A stretch of 64,000 bases of DNA from an uncultured Bacteroidales bacterium. Lineage in GTDB: Bacteria > Bacteroidota > Bacteroidia > Bacteroidales > FEN-979. Each line of letters starts with the position of its first letter. Position 1 is the stretch's first letter. The position numbers and the translations under genes are program-made. Under the pieces are notes generated by a model. The model ran no database searches. It was not told the DNA's origin and saw only the letters and a list, made by a program, of their open reading frames with translations. Below are positions 9,560-59,407 of the stretch, piece after piece. The DNA is taken from positions 2,636 through 66,635 of the forward strand of contig CAIWMX010000040.1 in NCBI GenBank assembly GCA_903913885.1, read 5' to 3'.

Positions 9560-9603
9560 TAGAGGCTGTTTAATTTTCGTTTTAAAATCCCGTCAGGGAT
9601 TTA

Positions 9604-9707
9604 ATATGGGTAGAAAAAAGGTTGAACTGCAAGGTATCGTCCCGTACGGGACGAAATTCCGTACAAAATGCTCTTCTTTTCTACCCATATTTTGTTCCTA
9701 CGGAACA
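9604..9707. repeat. hairpin/MITE-like intergenic element, copy 1 (core tcgtcccgtacgggacgaaat)
   Basis: Outer inverted repeat atatgggtagaaaa (9604-9617) / ttttctacccatat (9677-9690). Palindromic core at 9637-9657. Second small hairpin tgttcc-ta-cggaaca at 9693-9707. Confidence 0.7.
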
Positions 9708-9838
9708 AGTTTAGAAAAACCTATGAGGACCTATATTGCTCCAAAAAACAAGGTTCCAAAAATCCCTGAACCAATTTTCTTAATAACTGGTTTAGCATCT
9801 GGAACATCTAGTTCTTCTTTGCCGTTCTTCGTGTTGCA

Positions 9839-10597
9839 CTAAATTTTATGAAAATTCACTGCGCTGGCCTGCGCCGTGGGCATCAGCACCATGTCGTTCA
9901 CGTTCACATGGGCGGGAAGGGTGGTCACATAGTAAACGGCATCGGCAATATCTTCGGCCGAAAGCGGGGAAAACCCCTTGTAGACGTTTCCGGCCCGGGT
10001 TTCATCGCCCTTAAAGCGCACGAGCGAGAATTCGGTTTCGGCTGCCCCCGGGGCGATTTGCGTCACTTTGATGTTATGGGTAACCAGGTCGATCCGTGTT
10101 CCCTTGGTAATCGCGTCGACAGCAAATTTTGAACCGCAGTAAACATTGCCCATCGGGTAAACCTCTTTCCCGGCGACCGAACCGATGTTGATGATATGAC
10201 CCTGTTTGCGGGCCACCATGAGGGGCGAAACCATCCGGGTCATATATAGCAGGCCCTTGACGTTGGTATCGATCATCCGCTCCCAGTCGTCGACCACCCC
10301 TTCATGAACGGGGTTCATCCCCACGGCCAGCCCGGCGTTGTTGACCAGGACGTCGATCTCACGCCAGGGGCCGGTCAGCGATGCAACGGCTTGTTCAACC
10401 TCCGACAGGTTCCTGACGTCAAAACACAGCGGAAGGACTTCCACTCCGTAGGTTTTTCGCAGGTCATCGGCGAGTTCATCGAGCAGTTTTTGCCTGCGGC
10501 CGGTGATGATCAGGTTGTGCCCGTTTTGGGCAAATTTAGTGGCGATTGCCCTGCCAAAGCCGGAGGTGGTGCCGGTGATGAAGATGAGTTTGGTCAT
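9839..10597 (-). CDS. SDR family NAD(P)-dependent oxidoreductase (YdfG-like)
   Basis: ITGTTSGFGRAIA cofactor motif, NNAG, catalytic YCGSK; 252 aa. Confidence 0.88.
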   Translation of the reverse strand: MTKLIFITGTTSGFGRAIATKFAQNGHNLIITGRRQKLLDELADDLRKTYGVEVLPLCFDVRNLSEVEQAVASLTGPWREIDVLVNNAGLAVGMNPVHEGVVDDWERMIDTNVKGLLYMTRMVSPLMVARKQGHIINIGSVAGKEVYPMGNVYCGSKFAVDAITKGTRIDLVTHNIKVTQIAPGAAETEFSLVRFKGDETRAGNVYKGFSPLSAEDIADAVYYVTTLPAHVNVNDMVLMPTAQASAVNFHKI

Positions 10598-13700: not shown

Positions 13701-14612
13701 GTATGAGGTCATGTAAACGGCCGTGCCGGCCATGGGAATGCTCCCCTTCCCTCCTGCCATGCGGTCGCGGATCTCGCCGCCGCTGCCGGTGGCTGCCCCG
13801 TTGAAGGGTTCTACGGTGGTCGGGAAATTATGGGTTTCCGCCTTCAGCGAGATGACGGAGTGAATGTCGCTGATCACGAAATAATCGGCCACATCCTGGC
13901 GCACGGGTGCGAACTGCTCGATGTCGGGCCCGAGGATGAAGGCGACGTTGTCCTTGTATGCCGAGACCAGGAAATCGGGATGTTCTTTGGCCGTTTTTTT
14001 GATCATGGCAAAGAGCGAATCATCCATCTCCTTCCCGTCGATGATGAAAGTGCCGTTGAAGATCTTATGCCGGCAATGTTCCGAATTAACCTGCGAAAAG
14101 CCAAACACCTCGCTGTCGGTGAGCCCCCGGCCAAGCTTGTGGCTCAACCCGATGAGGTATTCAATCTCCTCCCCGCTCAGCGCCAGCCCCTGCTGACTGT
14201 TATATCCTGCAATATCCTCAATAAACTGCACCGGCTCCGGATCATGCAGAATATGAAAAATCTCCTGGTCCAGCACCTCATACACATGCTGCAGCATCGG
14301 GTCAAACGGCTGCCTGTCCCCCTCAATTGTAAATCCTAAATCGTCAATCGTAGATCGAAAATCGTAAATCGAAAATTCCTCAATCCTTTTAATCCCGCCG
14401 ATTCCCATATTCTGCGTAATCTCCACCGCATTCGTGCTCCATGGTGTGACCATTTCACGGCGCGGGCCGATAAAGGTTCCCTGTAAAACAGGTTCGGCGA
14501 TGCATACCGCCTCGCCGAACAACCAAACCAGTTTCTGAACATCCTGCCCGCTGAGCCCCTGGCTGCTTTCAACAGCATAGTAACTTTCGGGATTTTTGAA
14601 AAATGTTATCAT
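10755..14612 (-). CDS. purL: phosphoribosylformylglycinamidine synthase, single-chain large type
   Basis: 1285-aa ORF with the N-terminal PurS-like region, two AIR-synthase-like repeats (ETHNFPTTVEPFNGAATGSGGEIRD, DHGAGGHLNALSE) and a C-terminal class-I glutamine amidotransferase (GVCNGCQ, HGEG). Confidence 0.97.
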   Translation of the reverse strand: MITFFKNPESYYAVESSQGLSGQDVQKLVWLFGEAVCIAEPVLQGTFIGPRREMVTPWSTNAVEITQNMGIGGIKRIEEFSIYDFRSTIDDLGFTIEGDRQPFDPMLQHVYEVLDQEIFHILHDPEPVQFIEDIAGYNSQQGLALSGEEIEYLIGLSHKLGRGLTDSEVFGFSQVNSEHCRHKIFNGTFIIDGKEMDDSLFAMIKKTAKEHPDFLVSAYKDNVAFILGPDIEQFAPVRQDVADYFVISDIHSVISLKAETHNFPTTVEPFNGAATGSGGEIRDRMAGGKGSIPMAGTAVYMTSYPRTEGARSWEKSVEARPWLYKTPEEILIKASNGASDFGNKFGQALICGSLLTFEHAAGDRVYGYDKVIMQAGGIGFAKQHDSLKEEPAAGQQIVVLGGDNYRIGMGGGAVSSVATGEFANAIELNAVQRSNPEMQKRVFNAIRAMTEMEQNPIVSIHDHGAGGHLNALSELVEATGGTINIDSLPIGDPTLSAKEIVSNESQERMGLILADVDVALMRGIAERERAPMYLVGKTTGDHQLVFEDHKEGVHPIDLKLADFFGKPPKTIMVDLSHVTCHLSLAYDQTLVSEYLDQILQLEAVACKDWLTNKVDRAVSGKIAKQQTCGAIQLPLNNVGVTALDYQGLKGIATSLGHAPVAGLIDPAAGSRLSIARALSNLVWAPLTHGLSGVSLSANWMWPCRNPGEDARLYTAVKSVSDFAIALGINIPTGKDSLSMTQKYPDGKIVYSPGTVIISAVGEVSDVKKVVSPCLVPDEDSVLVYIPFSTCDFELGGSSFAQSISQLGDQVPDVADASYFAAVFEFLQDLVSRGAILAGHDVAAGGLITTLLEMTFSTPGTGLALELDNLDPVRVGDPDRVGDPDRVGDPDRVGDPDRVGDPVRVLFSEKPGVVVQVRVSEVARWRGSEIPVNFKVKNKKSDFIDFDVFPIGKITKNRSVKIKYAEQEYLFDIDALRDTWFKTSYLFDRKQSGEKLALERYNNYRQQPLKFLFPDHFQGTFGQFGTNPKRRKPSGVKAAIIREKGVNRDRDMAWALYLAGFDVKDVHMTDLIAGRENLEDVNMIAFVGGFSNSDVLGSAKGWAGAFLYNDKARLALDNFYKRDDTLSLGVCNGCQLMVALGLIYPEHQKHPWMSWNDSHKYECTFVGLDVMENNSVMLKSLAGSKLGIWVAHGEGKFNFPDEEHNYHIPAKFSYHGYPGNPNGSQFDAACIASADGRHLAIMPHLEDSVLPWQWPHYPGERHSDEVTPWITAFVNAREWIREKLKI
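11831..11864. repeat. 8-bp tandem array inside the purL coding sequence
   Basis: cgctacctcg ccacctcg ctacttcg ctaactc, translated in purL as ..VSEVARWRGSE... It shares 15 nt (11827-11841) with the reverse complement of 10634-10648. Confidence 0.8.
11902..12006. repeat. 18-bp tandem array (approx 5.8 units) inside the purL coding sequence
   Basis: accctgtcagggtccccc repeated. Read in purL as DPVRVG-(DPDRVG)x4-DPVRV. Confidence 0.95.
12863..12891. repeat. 7-bp tandem array (gtgacaa/gtgacat x4) inside the purL coding sequence
   Basis: gtgacaagtgacatgtgacatgtgacaag, read in purL as ..LSHVTCHLSLA.. Confidence 0.8.
14330..14378. repeat. degenerate 7-bp tandem array (taaatcg-like x7) inside the purL 5' coding region
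   Basis: taaatcc taaatcg tcaatcg tagatcg aaaatcg taaatcg aaaattc, read in purL as ..YDFRSTIDDLGFT.. Confidence 0.7.
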
Positions 14613-14699
14613 AAGTTAACGGTCAAAGGTCTGAAAAAAGGAAAAAAGGCAATACGCAACAGACATTAGGCATTAGTCAGAAACTAAAAAGGTGCCCCT

Positions 14700-14766
14700 C
14701 ATTGTCTGCATTGTTTGCATTGTCTGCATTGTCTGCATTGTCTGCATTGCTTGCATTGTTTGCATT
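14700..14766. repeat. 9-bp tandem array (cattgtctg/cattgtttg, 7 units) between the trxB stop and the purL start
   Basis: Direct reading. Two unit variants alternate. The array ends 7 nt from the trxB stop codon. Confidence 0.92.
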
Positions 14767-14772
14767 CATTTA

Positions 14773-15708
14773 TCAGGCACCGAGAAACCTTTCAGCTTCG
14801 ATAGCTGCCATGCAGCCGGTACCGGCCGCGGTCACTGCCTGGCGGTAATGGTGGTCCTGCACGTCGCCGCACGCGAACACCCCGTCGATGCTGGTCTGGG
14901 TGGTGCCCGGTTTGGTTTTGATGTATGCCTGGTCGTCGAGTTCCACCTGTCCGGTGAAGATATCGGTGTTGGGTTTGTGGCCGATGGCGACAAAAAAGCC
15001 CATGAGTGCAAGGTCGCGCGCTTCTCCCGTCTTCACGTTGCGCACGCGCAGGCCGGTCACCCCGCTTTCATCGCCGAGCACCTCTTCAGGGGCGCTGTCC
15101 CAAATCATCTCGATATTTGGGGTGTTGAGCACCTTGTGCTGCATCGCCTTGGAGGCGCGCAGTTCACTGCGGCGGTGCACCATGTAAACCTTCCTGCAGA
15201 GCTTGGCAAGGTAGGTAGCCTCCTCGGCTGCCGTATCCCCACCGCCCACGATGGCCACATCCTGCCCGCGGTAAAAGAAGCCGTCGCACGTGGCGCATCC
15301 CGAAACGCCCATGCCCATGAATTTCTTCTCCGATTCGAGTCCCAGCCATTTGGCTGAGGCGCCGGTGGCGATGATCACCGATTCGGCGACGATGGTCCTT
15401 CCATCGTCGGCTTTGGCCGTGAACGGGCGTTTGGAGAAGTCGACCTCTGTCACCACGCCGCCGCGCACCTGGGTGCCAAACCGTTCAGCCTGTTCCTTAA
15501 ACTCTTCCATCATCTCAGGGCCGGTGATCCCTTTCGGGTAACCCGGGAAGTTCTCCACCTCGGTGGTGATGGTAAGTTGTCCGCCGGGCTGCATGCCCTG
15601 GTACATCACCGGTTTGAGGTCGGCCCTGGCAGCATAGATGGCAGCCGTATAACCCGCCGGGCCTGAGCCAATGATCAGGCAGCGGGCGGTTTCTGTATTT
15701 TCGCTCAT
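14773..15708 (-). CDS. trxB: thioredoxin-disulfide reductase
   Basis: 311 aa. FAD motif IIGSGPAGYTAA, redox-active CATCDG, NADPH motif VGGGDTAAEEA. Confidence 0.97.
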   Translation of the reverse strand: MSENTETARCLIIGSGPAGYTAAIYAARADLKPVMYQGMQPGGQLTITTEVENFPGYPKGITGPEMMEEFKEQAERFGTQVRGGVVTEVDFSKRPFTAKADDGRTIVAESVIIATGASAKWLGLESEKKFMGMGVSGCATCDGFFYRGQDVAIVGGGDTAAEEATYLAKLCRKVYMVHRRSELRASKAMQHKVLNTPNIEMIWDSAPEEVLGDESGVTGLRVRNVKTGEARDLALMGFFVAIGHKPNTDIFTGQVELDDQAYIKTKPGTTQTSIDGVFACGDVQDHHYRQAVTAAGTGCMAAIEAERFLGA

Positions 15709-15858: not shown

Positions 15859-15932
15859 CGGGGTGTGGCGCAGTTGGCTAGCGTACTTGCATGGGGTGCA
15901 AGGGGTCGGAAGTTCGAGTCTTCTCACCCCGA
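15859..15932 (+). tRNA. tRNA-Pro (anticodon GGG), CCA not encoded
   Basis: Hand-folded cloverleaf. Acceptor CGGGGTG/CACCCCG, D stem GCGC/GCGT, anticodon stem CTTGC/GCAAG with loop AT-GGG-GT (U33, G37). 5-nt variable loop, T arm GGAAG-TTCGAGT-CTTCT, discriminator A. 74 nt in total. Confidence 0.9.
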
Positions 15933-15941
15933 CTTGAAAAT

Positions 15942-15981
15942 AAACCACTTACAGAGATAACATCAAGTAAGTGGTTTTTTA
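15942..15981 (+). terminator. rho-independent terminator after tRNA-Pro
   Basis: Stem ccacttac (15945-15952) / gtaagtgg (15967-15974) followed by tttttt. Confidence 0.7.
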
Positions 15982-16064
15982 TTTGCATACAACTTCAATA
16001 TAACTTTTACCCTTTGATTTAACAGTAAGGAATTTTAGTATCGCCTTTCAAAGGTAAGCTCCGG

Positions 16065-16322
16065 CTACGAGCATCTTGCGCGCTTGATCAGGTTGTGCCA
16101 GTCGTGGAGTTGAAATCGATAATCAGTGTAGGAAAAAATGCCGAGTCCCTTGTTTGGATTGTCTCCGTAACATAAGATATCTGTGAGTTTTGGATCAAGC
16201 AGCCCGAATTTAAGTCGTTCAGGACATTCACACTCTTGGATGATGGCAATGTCAGGTTCAATCGCAAGACGGTGTGCCTTGCGGCGGAACGCCATGTTAC
16301 AGTTCCAGGTGATAAGCTTCAT
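16065..16322 (-). pseudogene. truncated endonuclease/exonuclease/phosphatase (EEP) family gene fragment
   Basis: The 85-aa ORF starts MKLITWNCNMAFRRKAHRLAIEPDIAIIQECE, the typical EEP N-terminus with catalytic N and E. It ends after about 75 conserved residues, whereas full-length family members are several-fold longer. Confidence 0.6.
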
Positions 16323-16404
16323 GCTTGCAGAAAATACAGCTAACTGTGTACGGATAAATAATAATCCAATGAATTAATGAGGGTATTATGACTGACATCC
16401 GACT

Positions 16405-17259
16405 TTAATCGATGTTCTTTAAAACCTTGTCAACATTTGTTATAAACGAAACCAAATATTTTGATATCATTTCTTGATCTGGTTGGGCAATATTCTGGAT
16501 GTCTTGACTTAATAATGGTGTTTTTAAAGTACCCCAAAGACTGTCATCGTATCTACCCCTGCCATCAACTAACTCTAACTTCGATTCAACTGCATGAGTT
16601 AATGCGTCAATATTTTGACTCAAATACTCATATTGTTTCCTCGTTATAAGACAAGTTAACCTTAAAAAATTTGATTTGCTGTTCCATATAAAACAGTCAT
16701 AATTAAGCTTAGGGGTTCTGAACACCACTTTCCCCTCCGCCCTTGAGAAATATATCTTTGCAGCTAATATGTCCCCAATCTCGGCACAGACAGTATCCTG
16801 CCATTTGACGTTGTTCTTAATGGGGGTAACGGTTTCACCTTTTGTGGGCTTGGTTTTATTAGGTTCTAAATACCGTTCATAATATTGCATCACATCAGCA
16901 TACTCTTCCTGGCTTTCGGTTTGGTAAGCAATGTCCAACGATTGACTATCAGAAGAATAGAGCAGATTCATTGAAGAAACTATCGCATAACGCTCATTGA
17001 TGTAAAGTTTTGTATGTAAGCCAGTTACCAAAACTGGATTATACCCTAATGATTTGACTTGCTCTAATGTGGTTTTCTGATCGGCTCGAATATAAAAATC
17101 CACAGGAATCTTCCGCTCCTTGAGATTATTAAAGCACTTTTGGATTTTCTTCCAGTTCGTGAAATCACAGTAAGGGGACACGATGATGACAAATTTATCT
17201 GCCTCATCTATCAATGTCATAATATCCCCAGAAATCTGGTTCGGCTTGATTAGCTTCAT
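16405..17259 (-). CDS. phospholipase D-family (Nuc/HKD) nuclease with uncharacterised C-terminal domain
   Basis: Single HKD-type motif HTKLYINERYAIVSSMN about 95 aa from the N-terminus, then about 170 aa with no recognisable motif. Start set at the ATG for MKLIKPNQ (17259) rather than the ORF-track start 17298. Confidence 0.7.
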   Translation of the reverse strand: MKLIKPNQISGDIMTLIDEADKFVIIVSPYCDFTNWKKIQKCFNNLKERKIPVDFYIRADQKTTLEQVKSLGYNPVLVTGLHTKLYINERYAIVSSMNLLYSSDSQSLDIAYQTESQEEYADVMQYYERYLEPNKTKPTKGETVTPIKNNVKWQDTVCAEIGDILAAKIYFSRAEGKVVFRTPKLNYDCFIWNSKSNFLRLTCLITRKQYEYLSQNIDALTHAVESKLELVDGRGRYDDSLWGTLKTPLLSQDIQNIAQPDQEMISKYLVSFITNVDKVLKNID

Positions 17260-17566
17260 AAAATAGGAACGGATAAAAGATTTTGTCAAAGGTATCAATA
17301 ACCTGAAAACCTTTGTGGAAATTACCGCCAGCTTCAGGAATCAATAATACTCCATACCGGGAATGTCTCAAAGCTGCTGTCCTTGATTGGACCGGAATAA
17401 TCAATGAAGGCATTTAATACCATACTAAACTTTGATATCTTTACACTGCCCTCAAAATGACTAAACTATTTCATACATGAGCTGCCAAAAATGAGTAAAA
17501 GAGAGACAAGCGTGAACATTGGAATACGCAAAACAAAAGTATTTATTACTGATAAAGTATATTAGT

Positions 17567-20203
17567 ATGCAGACACAATTTCAATATATCACTGATCTTG
17601 CCAGGCAATACAAGGAATATTCAGACCATCAGGATATTTTGTACCAGGCCGTTAATAACTTGCCGCAAAACATCATTGAAGATGTATTTAAGGAATACGG
17701 TGATCCGGAACGGGATTTTAAACCGGTTAACCTTGTGCGGGCGGAAGTTGCCCGCAGACTATTGCAAGGTGAGCCTGTTACTGAAGCACTTGTAAATGAA
17801 ATCAAAGAAAAAATAAGGATAAAGGACACTGCTTTTTTTAGCCATTACAATGAAAATTATCTTAAACAACTTACAGAATATGAGTTGTTTAAAAGGGATT
17901 TGTTTGCCAACTGGCAAAAACCATGGAGTATATTTCATACGTTTTTCTACAGGCTTGCATGGGGAAAGGAAAAAGAAACTGTTCAAACCTACCTGGAACA
18001 AATTGCCAGGGACCTATTGGTTCAACTTGATTTAAAGGATTACACGTTTCACAAAGTTGATTTCCAGGGGGCATCTAACTTCGGTAGTAGTCATTGCTGG
18101 ATCGCGTTATATCCCGTGACAAAAGAATCACATAAAGATAGTTATCAGTTTTTCCTAATGTTAAGTGCTGACCCGGAAGCAGGCATGGTTGCTGGTTTTT
18201 CGATCCGGGAGCCAAAGCCGAATAAATTAAAGAAAGTAAATTCTTATAATGAGTCACTGGAATATTTGAAAGAGCTAAAACATGAAATTGTCCAGCTGAA
18301 TAAGGAAAGCAGGAGCTATTTCAAGTTTGCCCCAGGCAGTCAGGCAAGCGAATGGAGGAAATTTCATGAGGAAGGTATTGCGGCAATAAGTTATAACAAT
18401 GTAAATCTGCAGGATCTAACACCCTTCAAATCACGAGAAGAAATAAATATTGCAGCCGGGTTGGAACCAGACAATTGGTCCAACAATACCTGGAACCTTT
18501 GGCTTTTTAAAAATGCCAATATTGGCGATGTGATTTTTGCCACAAAGGGGGTCAATACTTCCATTGGCATTGGAATCATCGAAGGCGGATACTATTATGA
18601 CGCATCAGAGAATGATTATCAGCACCGGCGGAAGATAAACTGGATAACCGATAAAGTATACCAGTATAAATCTGACACGTTAAAGACTTACAAAACACTG
18701 TTCCGGCCAGATACATTCAGTCCAACCAAGGTATGGGAATTTTTGCTTGGAGAATATGTCCGGTTATTCCCTGAGCTGGCTGACTTGTTTGAGAAACACA
18801 ACCTGAAATTCAAAACAACCTCGGCTGTGACCTCTACTGTTAATGAACCTGAAGAGGCATCAGATCCGGAAGCGGAAGAAAAAGAACCATTAAATTTCTG
18901 GTGGCTGAATGCCAATCCGAAAATCTGGCGAATCAGCGATAATAGCGAAGGGCAATGCCAATCCTATACAACACACAATGAAAAGGGGAATAAGCGCAGA
19001 ATCTATAAACACTTTGAAGAAGCCAGGCCGGGAGACCTGATCATCGGGTATGAAAGCACACCAACCAAGCAGATCAAAGCAATTTACGAAGTTACCAAAG
19101 GGATACATTTAGCAGAAGAAGGAGAAGAGATAGAATTTCAGTTAGTTGAAAAGCTTGAAATTCCAGTTCATTGGAACGACTTGAAAAACAATCCGGCCCT
19201 TCAGGACTGCGAGGTCTTTATTAACAATCAGGGGAGTCTTTTTAAACTCACCGAGCCGGAGTTTGATATCATTCGTGAGATTATTGATAACAAGAATATC
19301 ATCACCGAAATACTGTTGCAAAAAAGCAATATCAGGCAATACCGGTTTGCTGAAGATGCGGACAAACCCTTTATCAGCGAAACTGACTTTCTCCAAACCG
19401 TTGCACTCCTCAAACGGAAAAAGAACATTATCCTTCAGGGCCCGCCGGGGGTGGGGAAGACCTTCATTGCCCGTAAAATTGCCTATGAGATAATGCAGGA
19501 GGTGAACGACGTAAACATTGAGATGGTACAGTTTCACCAATCATACAGCTACGAAGATTTTATCCAGGGATTGCGTCCCACTCAAAAAGGGGGTTTTGAG
19601 CTGAAAGACGGCATCTTTTATTCATTTTGTCAGAAAGCCCTGGCACACCCTGATCGGCCATTCTTTTTTATCATTGATGAAATAAACAGGGGTAATCTAA
19701 GTAAGATTTTTGGGGAGTTGATGATGTTGATGGAGGCTGATAAGCGGCAGGAAAAATTTGCCCTGAAACTGACCTATGCAGAGGATGAAGAGGATCGTTT
19801 TTATGTGCCGGAAAACCTTTACATCATCGGCACCATGAACACGGCCGACCGTTCCCTGGCCATTGTGGACTATGCCCTTCGGCGTCGGTTCTCCTTCGTA
19901 ACCCTTCAACCAGACTATGGGGAAAATTTTCGTTCGTTCCTTACATCCAGGGGGCTTTCTGAAGCTATGACAGAACATATTTGTGCCTCCATCAGGAACG
20001 TTAACAACAAAATAAAGGATGATCCGAATCTTGGCGATGGGTTTCAGATTGGACACAGCTATTTTTGCACCTTCAAAACCGGAGAAGATGAACGAATATG
20101 GTGGAACGAAATTCTTGGGTTTGAGCTGAAACCCCTGCTGGAGGAAATTTGGTTTGATGACGCGAAAAGCGTTGATGAGACCTTCAACTTACTCTCCAGG
20201 TAG
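17567..20203 (+). CDS. mcrB: McrB-family AAA+ GTPase restriction subunit with extended multi-domain N-terminus
   Basis: The C-terminal 270 aa carry Walker A LQGPPGVGKTF, FFFIIDEINRGNLSKIFGELMMLME and IIGTMNTADRSLAIVDYALRRRFSF. From memory these are near-identical to E. coli McrB signature blocks. An ATG at 17567 is preferred over the TTG at 17519. Confidence 0.92.
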   Translation: MQTQFQYITDLARQYKEYSDHQDILYQAVNNLPQNIIEDVFKEYGDPERDFKPVNLVRAEVARRLLQGEPVTEALVNEIKEKIRIKDTAFFSHYNENYLKQLTEYELFKRDLFANWQKPWSIFHTFFYRLAWGKEKETVQTYLEQIARDLLVQLDLKDYTFHKVDFQGASNFGSSHCWIALYPVTKESHKDSYQFFLMLSADPEAGMVAGFSIREPKPNKLKKVNSYNESLEYLKELKHEIVQLNKESRSYFKFAPGSQASEWRKFHEEGIAAISYNNVNLQDLTPFKSREEINIAAGLEPDNWSNNTWNLWLFKNANIGDVIFATKGVNTSIGIGIIEGGYYYDASENDYQHRRKINWITDKVYQYKSDTLKTYKTLFRPDTFSPTKVWEFLLGEYVRLFPELADLFEKHNLKFKTTSAVTSTVNEPEEASDPEAEEKEPLNFWWLNANPKIWRISDNSEGQCQSYTTHNEKGNKRRIYKHFEEARPGDLIIGYESTPTKQIKAIYEVTKGIHLAEEGEEIEFQLVEKLEIPVHWNDLKNNPALQDCEVFINNQGSLFKLTEPEFDIIREIIDNKNIITEILLQKSNIRQYRFAEDADKPFISETDFLQTVALLKRKKNIILQGPPGVGKTFIARKIAYEIMQEVNDVNIEMVQFHQSYSYEDFIQGLRPTQKGGFELKDGIFYSFCQKALAHPDRPFFFIIDEINRGNLSKIFGELMMLMEADKRQEKFALKLTYAEDEEDRFYVPENLYIIGTMNTADRSLAIVDYALRRRFSFVTLQPDYGENFRSFLTSRGLSEAMTEHICASIRNVNNKIKDDPNLGDGFQIGHSYFCTFKTGEDERIWWNEILGFELKPLLEEIWFDDAKSVDETFNLLSR

Positions 20204-20206
20204 ACC

Positions 20207-21238
20207 ATGCAGATCCCTATCGAAAATATCTATTACCTGCTTTGCTACGCATGGAACAAGCTCGATGAGAAGGAGCGCGTAAACGTTTCCATAGATGACA
20301 AGACCGAACTCCTTGACCTGTTTGCCAAAATCCTGATCAATGCCACACGGTCCTTGCTGAAACGAGGGATTGACAAGAACTACATCGATCATACCGAAGA
20401 ACTGGCCGGGGTAAAGGGGAAACTCCAACTCAGCCAGACCCTGAAACGCAATTTACTCTTCAAGCAACGAACCATCTGCACCTTCGACCATTTTTCATCA
20501 AACATCCTTTCCAATAGGATCCTGGTGACAACCATCTACAGGCTGACGCGTACCAAAGATCTTGATAAAAAGTTAAAGACCGACCTCGTCGCCTTGCAGA
20601 GAATGCTGTCACACATTCAGCAGATTGAATTGACCGTAAACCTTTTCAAACAAATCCGGCTCAACAGGAATAATCGGTTTTATGGCTACATCATGAATGT
20701 ATGTCAGATTATCCTCGAAAACACACTTCCTACAGAGAAACCTGGTGTTTACAAATTCTCAGATTTTACCCGCGATGACCGCAAGATGAACCAGCTCTTT
20801 GAAGCGTTTATACGAAATTTTTACCGCATTGAACAGAAGAGGTTTCCTGCCGTGAAAAAAGAGACCATCCTATGGAAATTCGAAATCGAAGATACGGTAA
20901 GTCTTCATTATCTGCCACGAATGGAAACCGATATAACTCTGGAAAATGACAAGGAAAAGATCATCATCGATGCCAAGTTCTACAGGGAAACCATGGTTTT
21001 AAATTATAATAAAGAGAAGATAAAATCGGCCAACTTATACCAGCTGTTCAGTTACTTGTTAAATCAGGAGGATGGTACATCAAAAACACAGCAGGCGACC
21101 GGTATTTTACTTTATCCAACGATTGAAAATGAATACAACTTTCAGTTTCGATTTCAGCAACATCTAATTCAAATACGGACCATTAACCTAAATTCAAATT
21201 GGAGAAATATTTCAAAAACATTGTTGCAGATAATTTAA
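20207..21238 (+). CDS. mcrC: McrC-family restriction endonuclease subunit
   Basis: Starts 3 nt after the mcrB stop. N-terminus IENIYYLLCYAWNKL, and a C-terminal PD-(D/E)xK-like TDITLE...IIIDAKFY. Confidence 0.88.
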   Translation: MQIPIENIYYLLCYAWNKLDEKERVNVSIDDKTELLDLFAKILINATRSLLKRGIDKNYIDHTEELAGVKGKLQLSQTLKRNLLFKQRTICTFDHFSSNILSNRILVTTIYRLTRTKDLDKKLKTDLVALQRMLSHIQQIELTVNLFKQIRLNRNNRFYGYIMNVCQIILENTLPTEKPGVYKFSDFTRDDRKMNQLFEAFIRNFYRIEQKRFPAVKKETILWKFEIEDTVSLHYLPRMETDITLENDKEKIIIDAKFYRETMVLNYNKEKIKSANLYQLFSYLLNQEDGTSKTQQATGILLYPTIENEYNFQFRFQQHLIQIRTINLNSNWRNISKTLLQII

Positions 21239-21798
21239 ATCGTTGATAAGCATTATAGTAAATGATATTTTGCTGTTACCAATTAACCTGAAACCGTCTC
21301 AATCAGTTAAATTTTCATTTAATAAGATTTTATATGTTATGGTATAGTTCCATTTAACCATAATGAAAAATGTTTAACGACCACTATAATCTGTTTTGAC
21401 GTGTTATGTTTTTTATGAATTTGGATATAATGAAGTTTTAATAGTTGGACGATGGCCTTATCCTTCAGAATCAATAGATGCTCTTTCTTCACCATAACTA
21501 TGATTCAGAAATTATTATATTTTTACGAAGTATTTAGTGCCATACCAGGAAGTGACTTAAATTTGATTTTTCTGAAAGAAAAAAAACTTCCACAAGAAAC
21601 TTAGGAAATCGAGGACCATAGGATAAATTCAATTACTGGATTCTGGTTTTTGAAAATTGAACTGTATAGTTAAAAGACAATAAGATCAGTTCTTAAAGGT
21701 CAAAAAATAATTGTAAAAATTCGCTCTTCTGGAGTTGGTATCCAAAAGGCAATCGATTTTTTATACAAAAAAAATCGCAACCAATTTGATAAGAAACT

Positions 21799-22572
21799 AT
21801 GAAAGATGGACAACGACTTTGGACAAGAGAAGAACTGATCCTCGCTATAAATTTGTATTGTAAACTGCCATTTGGTAAACTTCACAGAACCAATCAGGAG
21901 ATACTAAAATTATCTCAGTTAATAGGCAGGACAGCAAGTTCCGTAACATACAAATTGGTTAATTTCGCAAGTTTAGACCCGAGTTTAAAAGCTCGGGGAA
22001 TTAAAGGTGCCTCAAATGCGAGTAAATTAGATAAGGAAATTTGGCATGAGTTTTATAACAATTGGGAGATTTTGCCATATGAAAGTGAAAAACTTAAAGC
22101 CTTTAAATACCACACATCAATTGAAAAAGAGTGTTTGATTGATGAAAACGAATTACCCAGAGAAGGGAAAGAGCGTGAACAAATTGTTAAAGCCCGGGTT
22201 AATCAATATTTTTTCAGACAGAGTATTCTTGCTTCATATAATTTCACTTGCTGTATCACCGGAATCAAGCAATCTGAACTCTTAATTGCCAGCCATATCA
22301 GACCTTGGGGATTGGATGAAAAAAACCGATTGAATCCAAGAAATGGAATTGCAATCAATGCACTTCATGATAAGGCTTTTGAAAACGGACTTTTAACAAT
22401 AACACCAGATTTTCAAATTAATATTTCCTCCATTTTGCTTAAACAAAATAATAACGAGATCATAAATAACTATTTTGTCAAATACCATGGTAGTAAAATG
22501 ACATTGCCTTCCCGATTTCTACCAGATACTGAATTCTTACATTATCATAATCTGGAACGATTTAAACCATAA
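21799..22572 (+). CDS. HNH endonuclease (HNH_2-type putative restriction endonuclease)
   Basis: 257 aa. C-terminal CCITG...LIASHIRPW...NGIAINALHDKAFENGLLTI matches the HNH_2 pattern (H-N-H with upstream Cys pair). The N-terminal approx 100 aa is helical and HTH-like. Confidence 0.75.
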   Translation: MKDGQRLWTREELILAINLYCKLPFGKLHRTNQEILKLSQLIGRTASSVTYKLVNFASLDPSLKARGIKGASNASKLDKEIWHEFYNNWEILPYESEKLKAFKYHTSIEKECLIDENELPREGKEREQIVKARVNQYFFRQSILASYNFTCCITGIKQSELLIASHIRPWGLDEKNRLNPRNGIAINALHDKAFENGLLTITPDFQINISSILLKQNNNEIINNYFVKYHGSKMTLPSRFLPDTEFLHYHNLERFKP

Positions 22573-22694
22573 TTCAGTAATTAAACATAATCCTATTTAA
22601 CCACTTATTAGAACCGTTTGATTGAAATATTGTAAAAGCCGACCTTTTTATCGCCCCGTAAGCATTAATTGAAGTTATTGCTATAGAAAGTTGC

Positions 22695-22702
22695 TATTTT
22701 TG
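22695..22702 (+). promoter_or_regulatory. Bacteroidetes-type -7 box
   Basis: tatttttg lies 14 nt upstream of the ATG at 22716. Confidence 0.4.
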
Positions 22703-22715
22703 TTTGATATCAACA

Positions 22716-23618
22716 ATGGTTATGGAAGACCAAATAAGACTTGCCGCTTTTAATTGGCTTAGAAATCAATCCGAAATTTATGAAGATGTTCTTCCACGGA
22801 GAATCCTGGAGTCGGGTTTCGAATTTCAAGGGGAGCGAGTAACGTTAATTGGGGCATCTGGCATTTGGAAACCACGACAATTTAAGAGCAGACCAATTTC
22901 AATTACAACAATATTGAATGGTCCATACCCGGATAAGATGTCGGATGGCTTCCTTTCATACAAGTATCGTGGAACCGATCCTAACCATAGGGACAATGTT
23001 GGGCTGAGGTTAGCGATGGAAACAAAAACACCATTGATTTACTTCGTCAATCTTTCACCAAGCAAGTATATGGCAAATTTCCCGGCCTATATTATCAATG
23101 AAAATCGTGCATTACATGAATTTACTGTTGCGCTGGATGAAGAAAAATACATTGGGGTTCCGATTGAAACGAACCAGGTAAACGAGCCTGCGGAGTTTTA
23201 TCGAAGGAAGTATATAACCACCTTAGTTGAGCAAAGAGCCCATCAACATTCATTTCGTTTACGGGTTTTCGCTGCGTACAAGTCGCAATGTTGTCTTTGT
23301 AAACTAAATCATACAGAACTACTTGACGCAGCACATATAATCCCGGATAATGAACCTAAAGGTGACCCAATCGTTCCCAATGGATTAACCTTATGTAAAA
23401 TTCATCATTCGGCGTTTGATGTTAATATCCTTGGAATTTCACCGGATTACAATATTCATATTCGTGAAGACATTCTTCAGGAGATTGATGGCCCGATGTT
23501 GAAACATGGCATCCAGTCTCTTGATAAACATAAAATAATCTTACCTGCAAGAAAACAGGACTATCCAGATAAGGAGCGTCTTGAAATGCGATTTGATAAA
23601 TTTCGAAAGGTCGGTTAA
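22716..23618 (+). CDS. HNH endonuclease with N-terminal SRA/PUA-like putative modified-base reader
   Basis: C-terminal CCLC...LLDAAHIIP...NGLTLCKIHHSAFD (HNH_2). The N-terminal GASGIWKP..ISI..GPYPDK..DGFLSYKYRGTDPNHRDNVGLRLAMETKTPLIYF is colinear with SRA-domain landmarks (my own pattern match). ATG at 22716 is preferred over TTG at 22704. Confidence 0.7.
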   Translation: MVMEDQIRLAAFNWLRNQSEIYEDVLPRRILESGFEFQGERVTLIGASGIWKPRQFKSRPISITTILNGPYPDKMSDGFLSYKYRGTDPNHRDNVGLRLAMETKTPLIYFVNLSPSKYMANFPAYIINENRALHEFTVALDEEKYIGVPIETNQVNEPAEFYRRKYITTLVEQRAHQHSFRLRVFAAYKSQCCLCKLNHTELLDAAHIIPDNEPKGDPIVPNGLTLCKIHHSAFDVNILGISPDYNIHIREDILQEIDGPMLKHGIQSLDKHKIILPARKQDYPDKERLEMRFDKFRKVG

Positions 23619-23641
23619 TATTCAGATTCCCCCCATTTTCC

Positions 23642-23649
23642 TATTTTTG
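23642..23649 (+). promoter_or_regulatory. Bacteroidetes-type -7 box
   Basis: tatttttg lies 21 nt upstream of the ATG at 23670. Confidence 0.45.
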
Positions 23650-23669
23650 CCTCACCCAAACCCACCCCC

Positions 23670-24386
23670 ATGTCAAAACACGAGGAGAAAGAGATCACCG
23701 GCGACGAGATCAAAAAGGAGTTCCAGGTTGAACGGATGATCCTGTTCAGCGACGCGGTATTCGCCATCGTCATCACCCTGATGGCCATCGAGATCAGGCT
23801 GCCCGAAACGGGCGGCAAGGAGGGCGCGCTGCCGCTGGCGCAGGCCCTGGAGCACCTGCTGCCCGTCATCGTTTCCTACTGCATCAGCTTTGTGTTTATC
23901 GGGGCCATCTGGTACCAGCACCTGCGGATGTTCAGCCTGCTGAAGGATTACGACCGCGGGTTGATCGTGCGCAACCTGGTGCTGCTCTTCTTCGTAAGCC
24001 TCTTCCCCTTCAGCTCCTCCGTGATCACGCACGAACAGGGAGGCATGACCGCCATGTTCTTCTACCTGGGTATCATCCTGCTTTCCGTCGCCGCACAATA
24101 TTTTTTGTACCGCTACATCCTGGTGGAGCGTCCCGGGCTCCGCATCAGCACCGGGATCGCGAAACATATGCAGGAACTGCGGAAACAAAAGATATCCCTG
24201 GTCAGCTTCGCCTCCACCTACGTGCTGATCACCCTCACCTCGCTGCTGATCACCAAACCGGAACTGAAACCGATGTCCGTCATGTGGATGGCCGTGTTCC
24301 CCTTCGTATACCGCTGGATGGCCGCGAAAAAGGCAAAACATGCCAAAGCCGGTGGGCCGGAAAATGGCGGGAAGCAAGCTGAATAA
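23670..24386 (+). CDS. TMEM175/DUF1211 family potassium channel
   Basis: Signature ERMILFSDAVFAIVITLMAIEIRLP near the N-terminus, about 6 hydrophobic helices, 238 aa. Confidence 0.82.
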   Translation: MSKHEEKEITGDEIKKEFQVERMILFSDAVFAIVITLMAIEIRLPETGGKEGALPLAQALEHLLPVIVSYCISFVFIGAIWYQHLRMFSLLKDYDRGLIVRNLVLLFFVSLFPFSSSVITHEQGGMTAMFFYLGIILLSVAAQYFLYRYILVERPGLRISTGIAKHMQELRKQKISLVSFASTYVLITLTSLLITKPELKPMSVMWMAVFPFVYRWMAAKKAKHAKAGGPENGGKQAE

Positions 24387-24404
24387 AATGGCTGCCTCAA
24401 CCCC

Positions 24405-24725
24405 CGGCCCCCTCGCCAGAATACCTCACCCCCCTGACCCCCTCTCCGCCCGGAGAGGGGGAGGAAAGTTGTTGAATCATTTATCAGTTTGAAGCAAAAT
24501 ACCTGCAAACCTCACCAATCCGAGAATCCACGGCACCAACATTTGATTCCATGAAAATAAACAATTCTCCCCCTCTCCGGGCGGAGAGGGGGTCAGGGGG
24601 GTGAGGTATGCCAGAGCGAGACGCCACTCGGAGAGGGGATCAGGGGGGGGAGGTATGCCAGAGCGAGACGCCGCCCGGAGAGGGGGTCAGGGGGGTAATT
24701 TATGCCAGAGCGGAGTCAGGACGTG
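24405..24725. repeat. GC-rich hairpin repeat cluster (ccctctcc-loop-ggagaggg + tcaggggggtgagg), inverted plus tandem copies
   Basis: An inverted copy at about 24412-24465 and three forward copies with about 47-bp period at about 24568-24725 (ggtatgccagagcgagacgcc...cggagagggggtcagggggg). They flank a roughly 100-bp unique spacer. Confidence 0.85.
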
Positions 24726-24870
24726 ATGTATTCCGGCCTGGCTCCTTCAATCACAGTGATCTGTCAGATTTTTTTGCTGATTCCGAAATCCATCCCTATC
24801 TTTACCTGTAAATTCAATAACACAACCTGCACGGCGAAAGTTCGGCGTTGGTTCATAAAACAGCCTTGTT

Positions 24871-25860
24871 ATGAAAACCCGGATCCTGCTCATCTTTTGC
24901 ATCGTATCAGCCGTCACGGCCAGCCTGATTGATGGCTGCAAAAAGTCAGACACTACAACACCAACCGTTCCCAACATCGTCATGGAGACCATCCAGGTTT
25001 CGGGCGTCACCGATGTTTCGGCCACCTGCGGCGGGCTTATTGCCAGCGACGGCGGCTCTACCATCACAGCCCGGGGCGTTTGCTGGGGAACGGGAACCAC
25101 CCCGACGGTGGCCGACACCAAAACGCTGGATGGCGCCGGCGCAGGCAGTTTTATCAGCACCATGCCGGGACTTACCCCCAACACGACCTATTTCGTGCGC
25201 GCCTACGCCACCAACAGCCTGGGCACCGCCTATGGCAGCACGATGTCGTTCAAAACCAAATACGGCACCGTAACCGACTTCGACGGCAATGTGTACCACA
25301 CCATCGGGATCGGCAACCAGCTCTGGCTGGTCGAAAACCTGCTGGTAACCCATTACTGCAACGGCGACCCGGTAAACAATGTCGTCGATGATTACGAATG
25401 GAGCATCCAGACGGAAGGGGCCTGGTGCGACTACTTCAACATCGTCTCCGATTTCGGAAGGCTCTATAATTTCTATGCCGTAGCCGACGCGCGCAAACTC
25501 TGCCCCTCCGGCTGGCATGTGCCTGCAGATGCCGACTGGGCCACCCTGATGACATTCCTGGGCGGCGATGCGGTTGCCGGCGGCAAGATGAAAGACCTGT
25601 TATCCTGGGCGAGCCCGAACACCGGCGCCACGAATGAAAGCGGCTTCACGGCGCAACCGGCCGGGATGCGGTTTGACCTTTCGGGCAGCTGGACGTTTTT
25701 CGGCATGAATTACACGAATTCCCTGTGGAGCTCAAGCGCAGTAACTGCGGATACGGCCCTGGCCCGCACCCTGAACTACAACCACGCCGATGTGTTGAAA
25801 TACAGGGACGTTAAAACCGCCGGCGAGTCGGTGCGCTGCATCAAGACCCAGGCACGGTAA
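24871..25860 (+). CDS. FISUMP (Fibrobacter succinogenes major paralogous) domain lipoprotein
   Basis: Lipoprotein signal ..ASLIDGC. The C-terminal half reads TDFDGNVYHTIGIGNQLWLVENL...GRLYNF...CPSGWHVPADADW...AGGKMK...VRCIK, typical of TIGR02145-type domains. Confidence 0.85.
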   Translation: MKTRILLIFCIVSAVTASLIDGCKKSDTTTPTVPNIVMETIQVSGVTDVSATCGGLIASDGGSTITARGVCWGTGTTPTVADTKTLDGAGAGSFISTMPGLTPNTTYFVRAYATNSLGTAYGSTMSFKTKYGTVTDFDGNVYHTIGIGNQLWLVENLLVTHYCNGDPVNNVVDDYEWSIQTEGAWCDYFNIVSDFGRLYNFYAVADARKLCPSGWHVPADADWATLMTFLGGDAVAGGKMKDLLSWASPNTGATNESGFTAQPAGMRFDLSGSWTFFGMNYTNSLWSSSAVTADTALARTLNYNHADVLKYRDVKTAGESVRCIKTQAR

Positions 25861-25880
25861 AACCGGTTTTCTCAAAAGAG

Positions 25881-27929
25881 CTAGCGTTTATGGGCCAACA
25901 AGTTCGACAGGGCCTCTTTTGTCTTTCCCGGTAGCGATATTCCGGCCCGTTCGATGTCGGCGATATCCCCCAGCGGGATGTTCTTCTGCTGTGCCGTTTG
26001 CCGAGCGAAGTCAAGGTTTCGTGAAGCCTGGTCGAAGTCGCCGTTCATCACGAAAGCCGCGGCAAGGCCAAGGAAGGCCTCGAGGCTGCCATTGTCGATG
26101 CGCAGGCAGTGCCTGAAATTGTCGATGGCCTTGGCGGTTTGCCCGCCCTCCAGTTGGCAGTTCCCAAGCACGGTGTACAGTTCGGGCCGGTACGGATCGA
26201 GCCTGATGCCCTTTTCGGCATACAGGGCGCAGGAATCAAATTTCATTTCACTCATCAGCATGATGCTCAGCCCGGTGCAGGCGGTCACATTTTCGGGTTC
26301 AATTTCAAGGACTTTTTTAAAATCCGCAACAGCCTGCCCGGCCTGCCCCATGTTGCCATAGGTGACGCCCCGGTTGAATAGCGCCTTCGCGTTCTTCGGA
26401 TCGAGCCTCACCGCCTCCGAAAAATCGGCGACCGCCTTTTCCGGCTGGCCCGTAAAGCCGTAAACCATGCCGCGGTCGGCGTATACCCCGGCTGATGCCG
26501 GACCGATGGCCAGGGCCGTGGTGTAATCTTCGATTGCCGGCCTCCACTCCTGACGGAGCGTGTAGGATATCCCCCGATTCACGTATGGCTCAAAACTCCG
26601 TCCGGGATACTGGTCAATCACATTGCTCCAAAGCGACACGCCATCTTCCCAAACGTGGCTGCGTGAAAAGGTCACAGGCACGCAAACAAGAGCGAGAAGC
26701 GACAGCACGGAGAGGACCACGATCCTTTTTCTTTCGTCTTTTTTCACCAGCGATTGGGCACACCACACCACGATGAAGATCAGCCCGAAGTAAGGGATGT
26801 AGGAATACCTGTCGGAAAAAAAGGTTATCCCCACGGCAAAGATCTGCAGCAGGAAGAAAATGTTGACGAGGAAGAACATCATGCCGAAGGCAATCACCCT
26901 GCCCTTCTTTGCCGACCGGTACACCGCGAAGATAAGGGCCAAAAGCAATACCGGGTTAATAAACCGTATCCATACCATGGTGAAGCCTGTCATCACCGGG
27001 TAGGGATAGATGGCGCTCTGGGCATAGGGAACCACGAATTTGACCAGGTAGCCGCTGAAGGCATACAGCGCATAAAAAACCCGGTCGGAAAGCGACAACA
27101 TTTTGTCGGCCTGCAAAAACTCGGGCAGCTTCAGCCCGACCCTGTAGAGAATCAGTATTCCCGCCAGTCCGAAGATCAGGGAGAGCACGAAATAGGGTAT
27201 CTTCTCCGTAATGAGCTTCACCCGGAAAGGCCGTTGCAGCAGGAAATCGATAAGGAGCAGGGTCAGCGGCAGGGTAACAGCTTCAATTTTTGAGAGTAGC
27301 GATCCAAGGAATAACAGGATACTGTAAAGCAGGAGCCTGGAATTACGGACAGGACCGGTGACATAGCGGATGTACATGATGATGGAAGCCATGTAGAACA
27401 CGCCATAAAGCACATCTTTCCGTTCGGTGATCCAGGCTACCGATTCAACGCGCATGGGATGGATCCCGAAGAGCAGCGCGCCGAATACCGCATACACCAG
27501 GTCGATCCCAAGCATCTGCAGGATCCTGAAAACGAGCAGCGTGCACAGGATGTGCAGGAGCAGGTTCGTTACATGGAACGGCAGCGGGTTCTCGCCAAAG
27601 AGCCGGTATTCGATGGCGAAGGTAAGCAACGGCAGCGGGACATAACTGCCGTTCACGGGCCGGGTGAACATCTGGCGCACATGCTCCCCGGTGGGTTCCT
27701 TCACCAGCGGGTTGGCTGTCACATATTTTTCGTCATCCCAGGTTGGCATGAACCCGCCTTTGAGCGCGGGGAAAAAGGAGATAAACGTGACAACCGCAAT
27801 CACGAGGCCATAATAGAATGTCCTGGAGGTGAAAAATTGTCTCCAGTTTTCAGGCAGGACTGTCAGCATTTCAGGAGATTTTTCAACCGGCACCCGTGTT
27901 TGTGCGGCTGGGATGTTGCTCTTTGCCAT
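25881..27929 (-). CDS. polytopic membrane protein with C-terminal TPR repeats (TMTC/PMT-like GT-C glycosyltransferase candidate)
   Basis: About 10-12 hydrophobic segments followed by about 7 TPR-like repeats (AIEDYTTALAIGP.., AVADFSEAVRLDPKNAKALFNRG..). Start set at MAKSNIPAAQ (27929) instead of the ORF-track start 28088. Confidence 0.7.
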   Translation of the reverse strand: MAKSNIPAAQTRVPVEKSPEMLTVLPENWRQFFTSRTFYYGLVIAVVTFISFFPALKGGFMPTWDDEKYVTANPLVKEPTGEHVRQMFTRPVNGSYVPLPLLTFAIEYRLFGENPLPFHVTNLLLHILCTLLVFRILQMLGIDLVYAVFGALLFGIHPMRVESVAWITERKDVLYGVFYMASIIMYIRYVTGPVRNSRLLLYSILLFLGSLLSKIEAVTLPLTLLLIDFLLQRPFRVKLITEKIPYFVLSLIFGLAGILILYRVGLKLPEFLQADKMLSLSDRVFYALYAFSGYLVKFVVPYAQSAIYPYPVMTGFTMVWIRFINPVLLLALIFAVYRSAKKGRVIAFGMMFFLVNIFFLLQIFAVGITFFSDRYSYIPYFGLIFIVVWCAQSLVKKDERKRIVVLSVLSLLALVCVPVTFSRSHVWEDGVSLWSNVIDQYPGRSFEPYVNRGISYTLRQEWRPAIEDYTTALAIGPASAGVYADRGMVYGFTGQPEKAVADFSEAVRLDPKNAKALFNRGVTYGNMGQAGQAVADFKKVLEIEPENVTACTGLSIMLMSEMKFDSCALYAEKGIRLDPYRPELYTVLGNCQLEGGQTAKAIDNFRHCLRIDNGSLEAFLGLAAAFVMNGDFDQASRNLDFARQTAQQKNIPLGDIADIERAGISLPGKTKEALSNLLAHKR

Positions 27930-59402: not shown

Positions 59403-59407
59403 GCCGC

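Follow-up and report, generated by a model that had tools for sequence, protein, structure and literature searches.

How does a bacterial genome come to hold several nucleases side by side with no methyltransferase among them? The question is raised by a 64-kb stretch of DNA from an uncultured Bacteroidales bacterium (contig CAIWMX010000040.1; the whole stretch is called the window below), in which a 7.7-kb islet of low GC content follows a tRNA-Pro gene at positions 15942-23625. The islet carries a fragment of a gene of the endonuclease/exonuclease/phosphatase (EEP) type, a PLD-fold nuclease gene, an mcrBC operon and two HNH_2 endonuclease genes, referred to as HNH1 and HNH2. We consider it quite probable that this is a mosaic, integrase-less defence islet, built up in a variable hotspot 3' of tRNA-Pro(GGG) and comprising four independent nuclease units, all of them lacking a methyltransferase.

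A low-GC islet at a variable tRNA-Pro site

The GC content of the islet is 38.6%, against 51.1% in the rest of the window, and no other 7.7-kb segment of the entire stretch is as low (the minimum falls at 15901). Within the islet, GC content ranges from 27 to 47% in 400-nucleotide (nt) windows. The flanks stand at 55-63% on the left (13000-15600) and 52-60% on the right (23600-26600): the initial annotation had rightly described a sharp low-GC islet at tRNA-Pro, but its flank values of 57-67% were slightly high, and the background of the whole window is about 51%, not about 60%. Third codon positions tell the same story. Their GC content (GC3) is 29-53% in the six islet open reading frames (ORFs), with a mean of 42.5%, compared with a mean of 63.6% (standard deviation 8.9) in 30 other ORFs, which places the islet 21 points under the host mean (Mann-Whitney p = 3e-4). 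Composition also varies from module to module: 37% GC for the PLD gene, 41-42% for mcrBC, 28% for the spacer that follows it, 34% for HNH1 and 40% for HNH2.

Both borders are well delimited. The left anchor is a tRNA-Pro gene with anticodon GGG (15859-15933, plus strand; ARAGORN, and Rfam tRNA at 55.7 bits), and the islet begins 2-3 nt past its 3' end. Just 3' of the tRNA lies a terminator-like hairpin followed by a T-run (15939-15980, plus strand; inverted repeat I19, with 14-nt arms that are 93% complementary), which is part of the variable DNA, outside the conserved tRNA region. On the right, the islet ends at the HNH2 stop codon at 23618, 51 nt ahead of a TMEM175 gene. The GC profile and the position of a promoter box define this border (23619-23669, plus strand): GC content in 80-nt windows climbs from 0.38 to 0.47-0.72, recovering from about 23620 within some 40 nt, and a Bacteroidetes-type TAnnTTTG box, TATTTTTG, stands 28 nt upstream of the TMEM175 ATG at 23670. 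The same TATTTTTG box is found 21 nt upstream of the HNH2 ATG. In keeping with an uncultured Bacteroidota population as its source, the 64-kb window contains Type IX secretion genes, and its best named trxB matches are Bacteroidota or Bacteroidales MAGs.

Comparison with relatives reveals what is fixed and what is variable at this site. In these relatives trxB is 88-91% identical and synteny is conserved on the other side (purL, adh_short and two AMP-binding genes). The tRNA-Pro gene itself is identical in three cases (contigs L010, L012 and L013/L015), and similarity to the window stops 2-3 nt past its 3' end. What follows tRNA-Pro(GGG) in L010 (1-9770) is at least 9.7 kb of DNA of 28-42% GC, with primase-like DUF6371/Zn_ribbon_16, AAA_25 and AntA-like genes; in L012 (1-6817), it is an island of 30-38% GC with an HTH_17 excisionase-like gene, a ParB_N-N6_N4_Mtase gene and a DUF3987 gene. 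In L013/L015, DUF4160/DUF2442 genes lie beyond the tRNA and a peptidase C10 gene is located between trxB and the tRNA. Directly after the tRNA, both L010 and L012 carry a hairpin plus T-run of their own, different in each. The distal ends of these two islands lie outside the DNA examined, and the sequences of two further relatives (L008/L011) end within 1.6 kb of trxB. Since different content follows an identical tRNA in relatives, the 3' flank of tRNA-Pro(GGG) is a hotspot for foreign DNA. The islet thus combines adjacency to a tRNA 3' end, atypical composition and variability among relatives, three properties by which tRNA-associated islands are recognized. As a side observation, the L010 and L012 islands look like integrative mobile elements.

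Horizontal acquisition of the islet genes, as proposed in the initial annotation, is well supported by this variable tRNA site and by the low-GC contigs in which homologues of the HNH genes are found (see below). The idea of a compact single unit, on the other hand, has to be given up. The islet is a mosaic, accreted and decayed over time, and not one fresh insertion, because its modules differ in GC content, the EEP gene is cut at the tRNA edge and the HNH2-TMEM175 junction is shared with another contig.

Two features of the islet illustrate this history. The first is the EEP fragment (16065-16322, minus strand; 85 amino acids (aa), about the N-terminal third), recognized by tblastn: residues 1-77 are 40-47% identical, with E-values down to 2e-12, to the N-terminus of annotated endonuclease/exonuclease/phosphatase proteins from plasmids. 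A complete homologue has 237 aa, so the fragment does not amount to a full-length catalytic domain. Searches of Pfam, PADLOC, NCBIfam, PHROGs and PDB sequences returned no match for it, and the 131 nt between the fragment and tRNA-Pro hold no coding remnant of the gene. Judging from its sequence, the EEP ORF is a truncated, dead gene; it is probably debris left by a deletion at the tRNA edge. The second feature is the AT-rich spacer of 560 nt between mcrC and HNH1 (21239-21798, 28.4% GC), in which we found no ORF longer than 61 aa, no Rfam match and no terminator. Several sigma-70-like matches occur there, which are not evidence of function. This spacer is probably a seam between separately acquired modules that also contains the HNH1 promoter region, or it may be a silenced promoter region.

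Four nuclease units

The gene calls of the initial annotation (truncated EEP, PLD, mcrBC and two HNH_2 genes) were borne out by HMM, tblastn and fold searches. So was the absence of any companion modification gene: neither the islet ORFs nor, across the 64-kb window, the ORFs of 200 aa or more contain a methyltransferase, integrase or transposase domain. Among these ORFs there is thus no cognate DNA methyltransferase of the kind that defines Type I, II or III restriction-modification (R-M) systems. With no protecting methyltransferase, each enzyme needs either a mark that is absent from the host or some other form of restraint. The reasoning holds well for McrBC, which has a recognizable reader, and for HNH2, with its putative SRA-like one; for HNH1 and the PLD protein it is hypothetical. 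As a rule, methyltransferases are not found close to PUA-type modification-dependent nucleases (PMC6765204), and modification-dependent enzymes made of a sensor and an HNH nuclease are known in SRA-HNH and EVE-HNH forms (PMC6765204, PMC7897488).

The McrBC operon is the most easily classified unit. The mcrB gene (17519-20203, plus strand; alternative ATG at 17567) encodes a long multi-domain N-terminus followed by an AAA+ GTPase, and mcrC (20207-21238, plus strand) begins 3 nt after its stop codon on the same strand, as in an operon. The N-terminus of McrB comprises DUF8426 (a precomputed match), a stretch at residues 273-380 that resembles the PADLOC candidate PDC-S02 (1.4e-9) and, at residues 459-587, an EVE domain (PF01878; 32.7 bits for a cut-off of 23), which constitutes an N-terminal modified-base reader. 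We detected no PDB sequence match for the N-terminal 576 aa, nor any mutual similarity between residues ~270-430 and the EVE region that would betray an internal duplication. The GTPase part matches AAA_5 (1.4e-25), NCBIfam McrB (2e-96 over residues 602-883) and McrB_lid (precomputed), with GPPGVGKT at 641 (Walker A), DEINR at 720 (Walker B) and NTAD at 774 (the NxxD signature). The complete McrB stays under the E. coli-type equivalog cut-off (323 versus 637 bits) because only the GTPase part aligns. McrC is identified by Pfam McrBC (1.3e-36) and by the NCBIfam McrC equivalog (342.1 bits, over the cut-off of 338), and its D...DAK nuclease motif is visible.

The operon shares with E. coli K-12 McrBC the AAA+ GTPase motifs of McrB, a DUF2357/PD-(D/E)xK McrC, a tight operon with mcrB upstream, and a reader fused to the N-terminus of McrB. 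The reader itself differs: DUF3578 in E. coli, EVE with DUF8426 and the PDC-S02-like stretch here. Among EVE defence architectures, EVE-McrB, often with extra domains, is described as the most frequent, and as abundant in Bacteroidetes (PMC7641849; see also PMC11090510). Family membership and the EVE reader together back modification dependence for this predicted system. By analogy with E. coli McrBC, the mechanism of which is summarized in PMC11090510, reader domains on the McrB ring would bind modified bases, GTP hydrolysis would drive DNA translocation by the AAA+ ring, and the PD-(D/E)xK nuclease of McrC would cut.

HNH2 (22704-23618, plus strand; likely start ATG at 22716) combines a putative SRA-like reader with an HNH_2 nuclease (1.3e-8) in an arrangement similar to that of TagI. 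It belongs to a very large and highly conserved family (more than 7500 clusters, 55-95% identity), which the sources name 'putative restriction endonuclease'. Nuclease residues C192, C195, H207, N222, C227, H230 and H231 are invariant, among them the catalytic residues. An AlphaFold2 (AF2) model with a predicted local distance difference test (pLDDT) score of 84.9 finds TagI (6ghs) as its best PDB match in Foldseek, with both domains aligned (E 2.6e-6), followed by SUVH5 SRA domains with 5mC or 5hmC DNA (probability 1.0), VcaM4I and ScoMcrA. TagI is an SRA-HNH protein in a single polypeptide, as HNH2 is predicted to be, and HNH2 is also solitary, with no methyltransferase beside it in the islet or the window, nor beside its homologues in four other contigs (L020-L023). 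TagI and HNH2 show hardly any similarity in sequence (profile E 0.16, restricted to the nuclease part), and the N-terminal segment of HNH2 has no Pfam SRA or PUA match. Modification dependence of HNH2 is therefore a prediction backed by its SRA-like-HNH model and by TagI as best structural match. The SRA-like domain would probably flip out 5mC or 5hmC, and the HNH domain would cut nearby, as in TagI.

HNH1 (21799-22572, plus strand) is a solitary gene whose product has a helical N-terminal domain (residues ~1-100) and an HNH_2 nuclease (2.9e-9) of the VcaM4I type. The PADLOC HNH family PDLC04132 covers its full length (6.6e-92); we considered this family as part of the MADS system and dropped the idea, since the MADS preprint does not mention HNH. 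The nuclease domain matches VcaM4I (PDB 6yex) at 7e-10 with the single sequence and at 8.8e-25 over ~110 residues with the family profile. VcaM4I, an EVE-HNH enzyme of the TspA15I group, thus has a homologous nuclease, and both proteins join a sensor and an HNH domain in a single chain. The difference lies in the sensor: VcaM4I has an EVE domain, whereas the ~100-aa N-terminus of HNH1 matches no Pfam family or PDB sequence. Residues 1-136 have no EVE or PUA match in Pfam even at E-values up to 10, EVE is absent from the 60 family members scanned, and a family profile run against PDB sequences finds the nuclease only. Yet this N-terminal domain is conserved in the family, with W8, Y20, R44, K52, N55 and D60. 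HNH1 may thus be a VcaM4I-type nuclease guided by a different N-terminal DNA-sensing domain.

The fourth unit is a two-domain protein encoded by a solitary gene (16405-17298, minus strand; the likely start, an ATG at 17259, gives 284 aa). An N-terminal PLD-fold domain with a single HKD-type motif is followed by a C-terminal alpha/beta domain. The assignment to the PLD fold draws on an AF2 model with a pLDDT of 90.8, which Foldseek matches over residues ~1-135 to Zucchini, NucT, Nuc, SauUSI and BfiI (E 3e-6 to 3e-5, probability 1.0), on an invariant motif and on PLDc_2 matches below cut-off. In the family, 52 of 70 members match PLDc_2 (E up to 1; best 4.7e-8), a few match the RE_NgoFVII PLD model, and H82, K84, E89, S96 and N98 are invariant, that is, HxK(x)4E...SxN. 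One HKD-type motif per chain is also what Nuc, NucT, Zucchini and the nuclease domains of BfiI, NgoAVII/NgoFVII and SauUSI possess. BfiI resembles the islet protein further in carrying a second domain; however, the B3-like domain of BfiI and NgoAVII is absent here, and the C-terminal domain is of a different kind. These ~130 aa have the predicted order alpha-beta4-alpha-beta2-alpha. Pfam searches of this segment at E-values up to 10 gave noise, the PDB-sequence profile search found the nuclease part only, and BFVD returned only weak matches to small phage proteins (MotA, DUF5655 and Alc-like). By analogy with Nuc and BfiI, the protein would form a homodimer with one composite HKD active site, and the C-terminal domain would pick the substrate.

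With ~212 clusters the PLD family is small, and no member comes closer to the islet protein than 42% identity. The few members with a source name are mostly from Bacteroidota, plus one from Ignavibacterium. Homologues are solitary; one lies in a clear defence island with AbiEii, DUF1156, PLDc_2-SNF2 and Mrr_N genes, and two others have unremarkable gene contexts.

That all effectors of the islet depend on modification, as first suggested, can thus be retained for McrBC, from its family and EVE domain, and for HNH2, from its TagI-like model. For HNH1 and the PLD protein it cannot: here modification dependence is our guess from the missing methyltransferase. A defence role for the islet as a whole is likewise something we infer from these putative activities.

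Competing explanations

Several observations weigh against our interpretation. Concerning the site, an integrase-mediated tRNA genomic island has an integrase gene and a flanking direct repeat that stems from the tRNA 3' end, and here we find neither: the islet and its right border contain no repeat of at least 12 nt that derives from the tRNA or the adjoining flank, matches in k-mer, blastn and repeat searches being at most 11 nt and at chance level, in agreement with the initial annotation. An empty trxB-tRNA-Pro-TMEM175 junction, which that annotation had proposed to look for in relatives, was not found in TMEM175 scans of genome and metagenome contigs or in walks from trxB homologues; the site proved to be variably occupied in relatives instead, and insertion is deduced from that variability. 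In addition, the order HNH2-TMEM175-Fib_succ_major recurs in a contig with a 95% identical HNH2; since this junction is shared at such identity, at least HNH2 is not a recent arrival. Concerning the enzymes, the PLDc_2 score of the islet PLD protein (20.4 bits) lies under the Pfam gathering cut-off of 27, and its family departs from the canonical HxK(x)4D(x)6GSxN of HKD nucleases, with an invariant glutamate, E89 at +7, for D and S for G. The SRA match of HNH2 is modest (target-normalized TM-score ~0.48, root-mean-square deviation ~7 A). Finally, HNH1 also matches a REBASE-derived PADLOC model for HNH-type Type II restriction endonucleases (PDLC03546, 1.8e-40).

Besides the source population, the TMEM175 scans returned only relatives at 55-67% identity in which synteny is not kept. 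Two short contigs, L004 and L005, were ruled out as empty sites as both carry the HNH2 end. Over a 19.2-kb segment that includes the islet, metagenome contigs from two Joint Genome Institute (JGI) samples match the window at 100% identity. Another metagenome contig (L006, 1355-2609) is identical to window positions 22881-24234; past residue 188 of TMEM175 it continues as unrelated high-GC sequence that contains a 326-aa ORF, which may reflect either an insertion in a variant strain or a chimeric assembly.

The alternative that fares best is that an integrative element (an island, a satellite or an integrative and conjugative element) once entered at tRNA-Pro by means of an integrase and later lost this integrase, the attachment (att) repeat and some of its genes, leaving the islet as its decayed cargo end. 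Islands of mobile-element type at the same tRNA in relatives, with their primase-like, AAA_25, HTH_17 and DUF3987 genes, speak for it, and so do the EEP gene cut at the tRNA-proximal edge and the separate terminator hairpin that directly follows the tRNA in each variant. We regard it as a serious possibility that stops short of being probable: the window holds neither an integrase remnant nor an att-like repeat of 12 nt or more, and the differences in GC content between modules, together with an HNH pair found in another orientation elsewhere, suggest piecemeal accretion and not a single element.

A second alternative questions the enzymes. HNH1, the PLD protein or both may not depend on modification at all: they may be orphan nucleases, either Type II-like or specific for a sequence or structure, that are perhaps inactive or silenced; they may also be defence nucleases with another trigger, or non-defence enzymes such as those of homing or repair. 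The Type II restriction enzyme model matched by HNH1 is consistent with this, as is the lack of a match to any known modified-base reader in the HNH1 N-terminal and PLD C-terminal domains; PLD-fold nucleases moreover include Type II enzymes such as BfiI. The family of HNH1 supplies a further argument. A 249-aa homologue with 46% identity is found in Neisseria gonorrhoeae NZ_CP119142, a chromosome filed as a plasmid (L024, 3950-5741), between pheS and pheT and directly after vsr and a truncated remnant of a C5-cytosine methyltransferase gene. In meningococci the NmeDI R-M system occupies this position (PMC7973814), and the context shows that the HNH1 family can reside within R-M loci. However, the truncated gonococcal methyltransferase offers no working partner there either, and further PLD and HNH1 homologues are solitary or accompanied by defence genes, the stretches examined showing no methyltransferase next to them. 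A sequence-specific restriction endonuclease that is active but lacks its methyltransferase would kill its host, yet both families keep their catalytic residues invariant. The closest counterpart of the HNH1 nuclease domain is found in the modification-dependent VcaM4I. On balance we hold this second alternative to be rather doubtful.

The gonococcal HNH gene appears to have taken the place of the restriction gene and of the methyltransferase gene's 3' part. We had considered that its product might be R.NmeDI itself and dropped this idea: R.NmeDI has 351 aa and was put by its authors in a PD...(D/E)XK context (PMC2095814).

If the four units are indeed independent nucleases of a defence islet, we may tentatively hypothesize that the N-terminal domain of HNH1 (~100 aa) and the C-terminal domain of the PLD protein (~130 aa) are new sensors of foreign DNA, the latter perhaps with a double-wing-like DNA-binding fold, and that HNH1 and HNH2 perhaps travel as a recurrent pair. 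In this case the four methyltransferase-free nucleases of the islet would each be tuned differently, and two would be the first members of uncharacterized classes of restriction enzymes that are modification-dependent or otherwise triggered.

The pairing of the two HNH genes rests on two contigs of ~37% GC, L022 and L023, where the nearest homologues of HNH2 (89% aa and 82% nt identity) and HNH1 (76% aa and 70% nt identity) outside the source species are again neighbours. Upstream of them is a 332-aa NucS_C-like gene, and a ParD antitoxin gene is close by. These low-GC homes fit a low-GC donor pool for the islet. Could HNH1 and HNH2 then be parts of a single system in which two readers and two nucleases act jointly? 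Adjacency in the islet and again in L022/L023, in a different genome context, would favour such a system. Yet the islet has the two genes in tandem, while in L022 (866-3837), as in L023, they point towards each other across a 75-aa ORF, so that their co-transcription is not conserved. HNH2 stands alone in L020/L021, the plasmid records carrying either family (9 and 3) do not overlap, and the relatives TagI and VcaM4I each combine reader and HNH nuclease in one polypeptide (PMC7897488). A joint system is improbable on these grounds.

Least probable of all, and by our estimate very much so, is that the low-GC genes are ancestral to the lineage and AT-rich by selection or silencing, with no acquisition at this site: the recurrent HNH2-TMEM175-Fib_succ_major order, the 19.2 kb of identical sequence in two samples and the missing empty site would agree with it, but relatives with 88-91% identical trxB, the same purL-side synteny and the same tRNA hold quite different content after that tRNA, islet GC3 is far below the host mean, the nearest HNH1 and HNH2 homologues occupy ~37% GC contigs in unrelated contexts, and the PLD family, with its distant nearest member, is scattered across genomes.

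Known counterparts and other features of the window

As a mosaic defence islet, the locus resembles tRNA-linked islands and defence hotspots such as the E. coli mcrBC-hsd-mrr 'immigration control region' and the core hotspots of P. aeruginosa (PMC10250203), where a fixed site likewise receives varying AT-rich foreign sets with stacked restriction-type systems. Unlike those hotspots, it has no integrase, recombinase, att repeat or methyltransferase-bearing system, and it is small (7.7 kb) and partly decayed.

The combination of systems, presented initially as more interesting than any single gene, is not unusual: EVE-McrB is common in Bacteroidetes (PMC7641849), absence of a nearby methyltransferase is typical of PUA-type modification-dependent nucleases (PMC6765204), and stacked restriction-type systems are the very substance of defence islands. 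Indeed, each element has a known counterpart, be it EVE-McrBC, sensor-HNH enzymes, single-HKD nucleases or hotspots at tRNA and core genes (PMC10250203). What novelty remains, and it is mild, lies in the HNH1 N-terminal domain, the PLD C-terminal domain and the recurring HNH1-HNH2 neighbourhood. The islet therefore serves as a clean, well-delimited case of a known pattern, that of defence genes at a hotspot and of modification-dependent nucleases devoid of a methyltransferase, and it marks the trxB-adjacent tRNA-Pro(GGG) as a variable hotspot in an uncultured Bacteroidota lineage. The PLD protein and HNH1 represent compact solitary families with conserved catalytic residues, and are cheap candidates for architecture-guided screening, an approach that has yielded TspA15I, ScoA3IV and other enzyme groups (PMC6765204). 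Should their sensors read new DNA modifications, they might become reagents to map such marks.

Elsewhere in the window, a cluster of ~6.1 kb (3705-9559) lies between a 588-aa AMP-binding gene and a 252-aa adh_short gene. It contains an NAD-epimerase gene, two or three glycosyltransferase genes, a UDP-GlcNAc 2-epimerase gene and a 205-aa ORF (36% GC) with no Pfam match. Because the AMP-binding and adh_short genes are adjacent in all relatives examined (L008, L010-L015), this cluster is a second lineage-specific insertion. Two low-GC ORFs without a Pfam match, at 8942-9559 (36% GC) and 59408-61003 (45% GC), fall in the 1-kb bins 9001-10000 and 59001-60000, both at 39% GC. Lastly, an AAA_14/DUF4143 ATPase gene (35016-36422) is located among metabolic and secreted-protein genes, with no evident defence neighbours.

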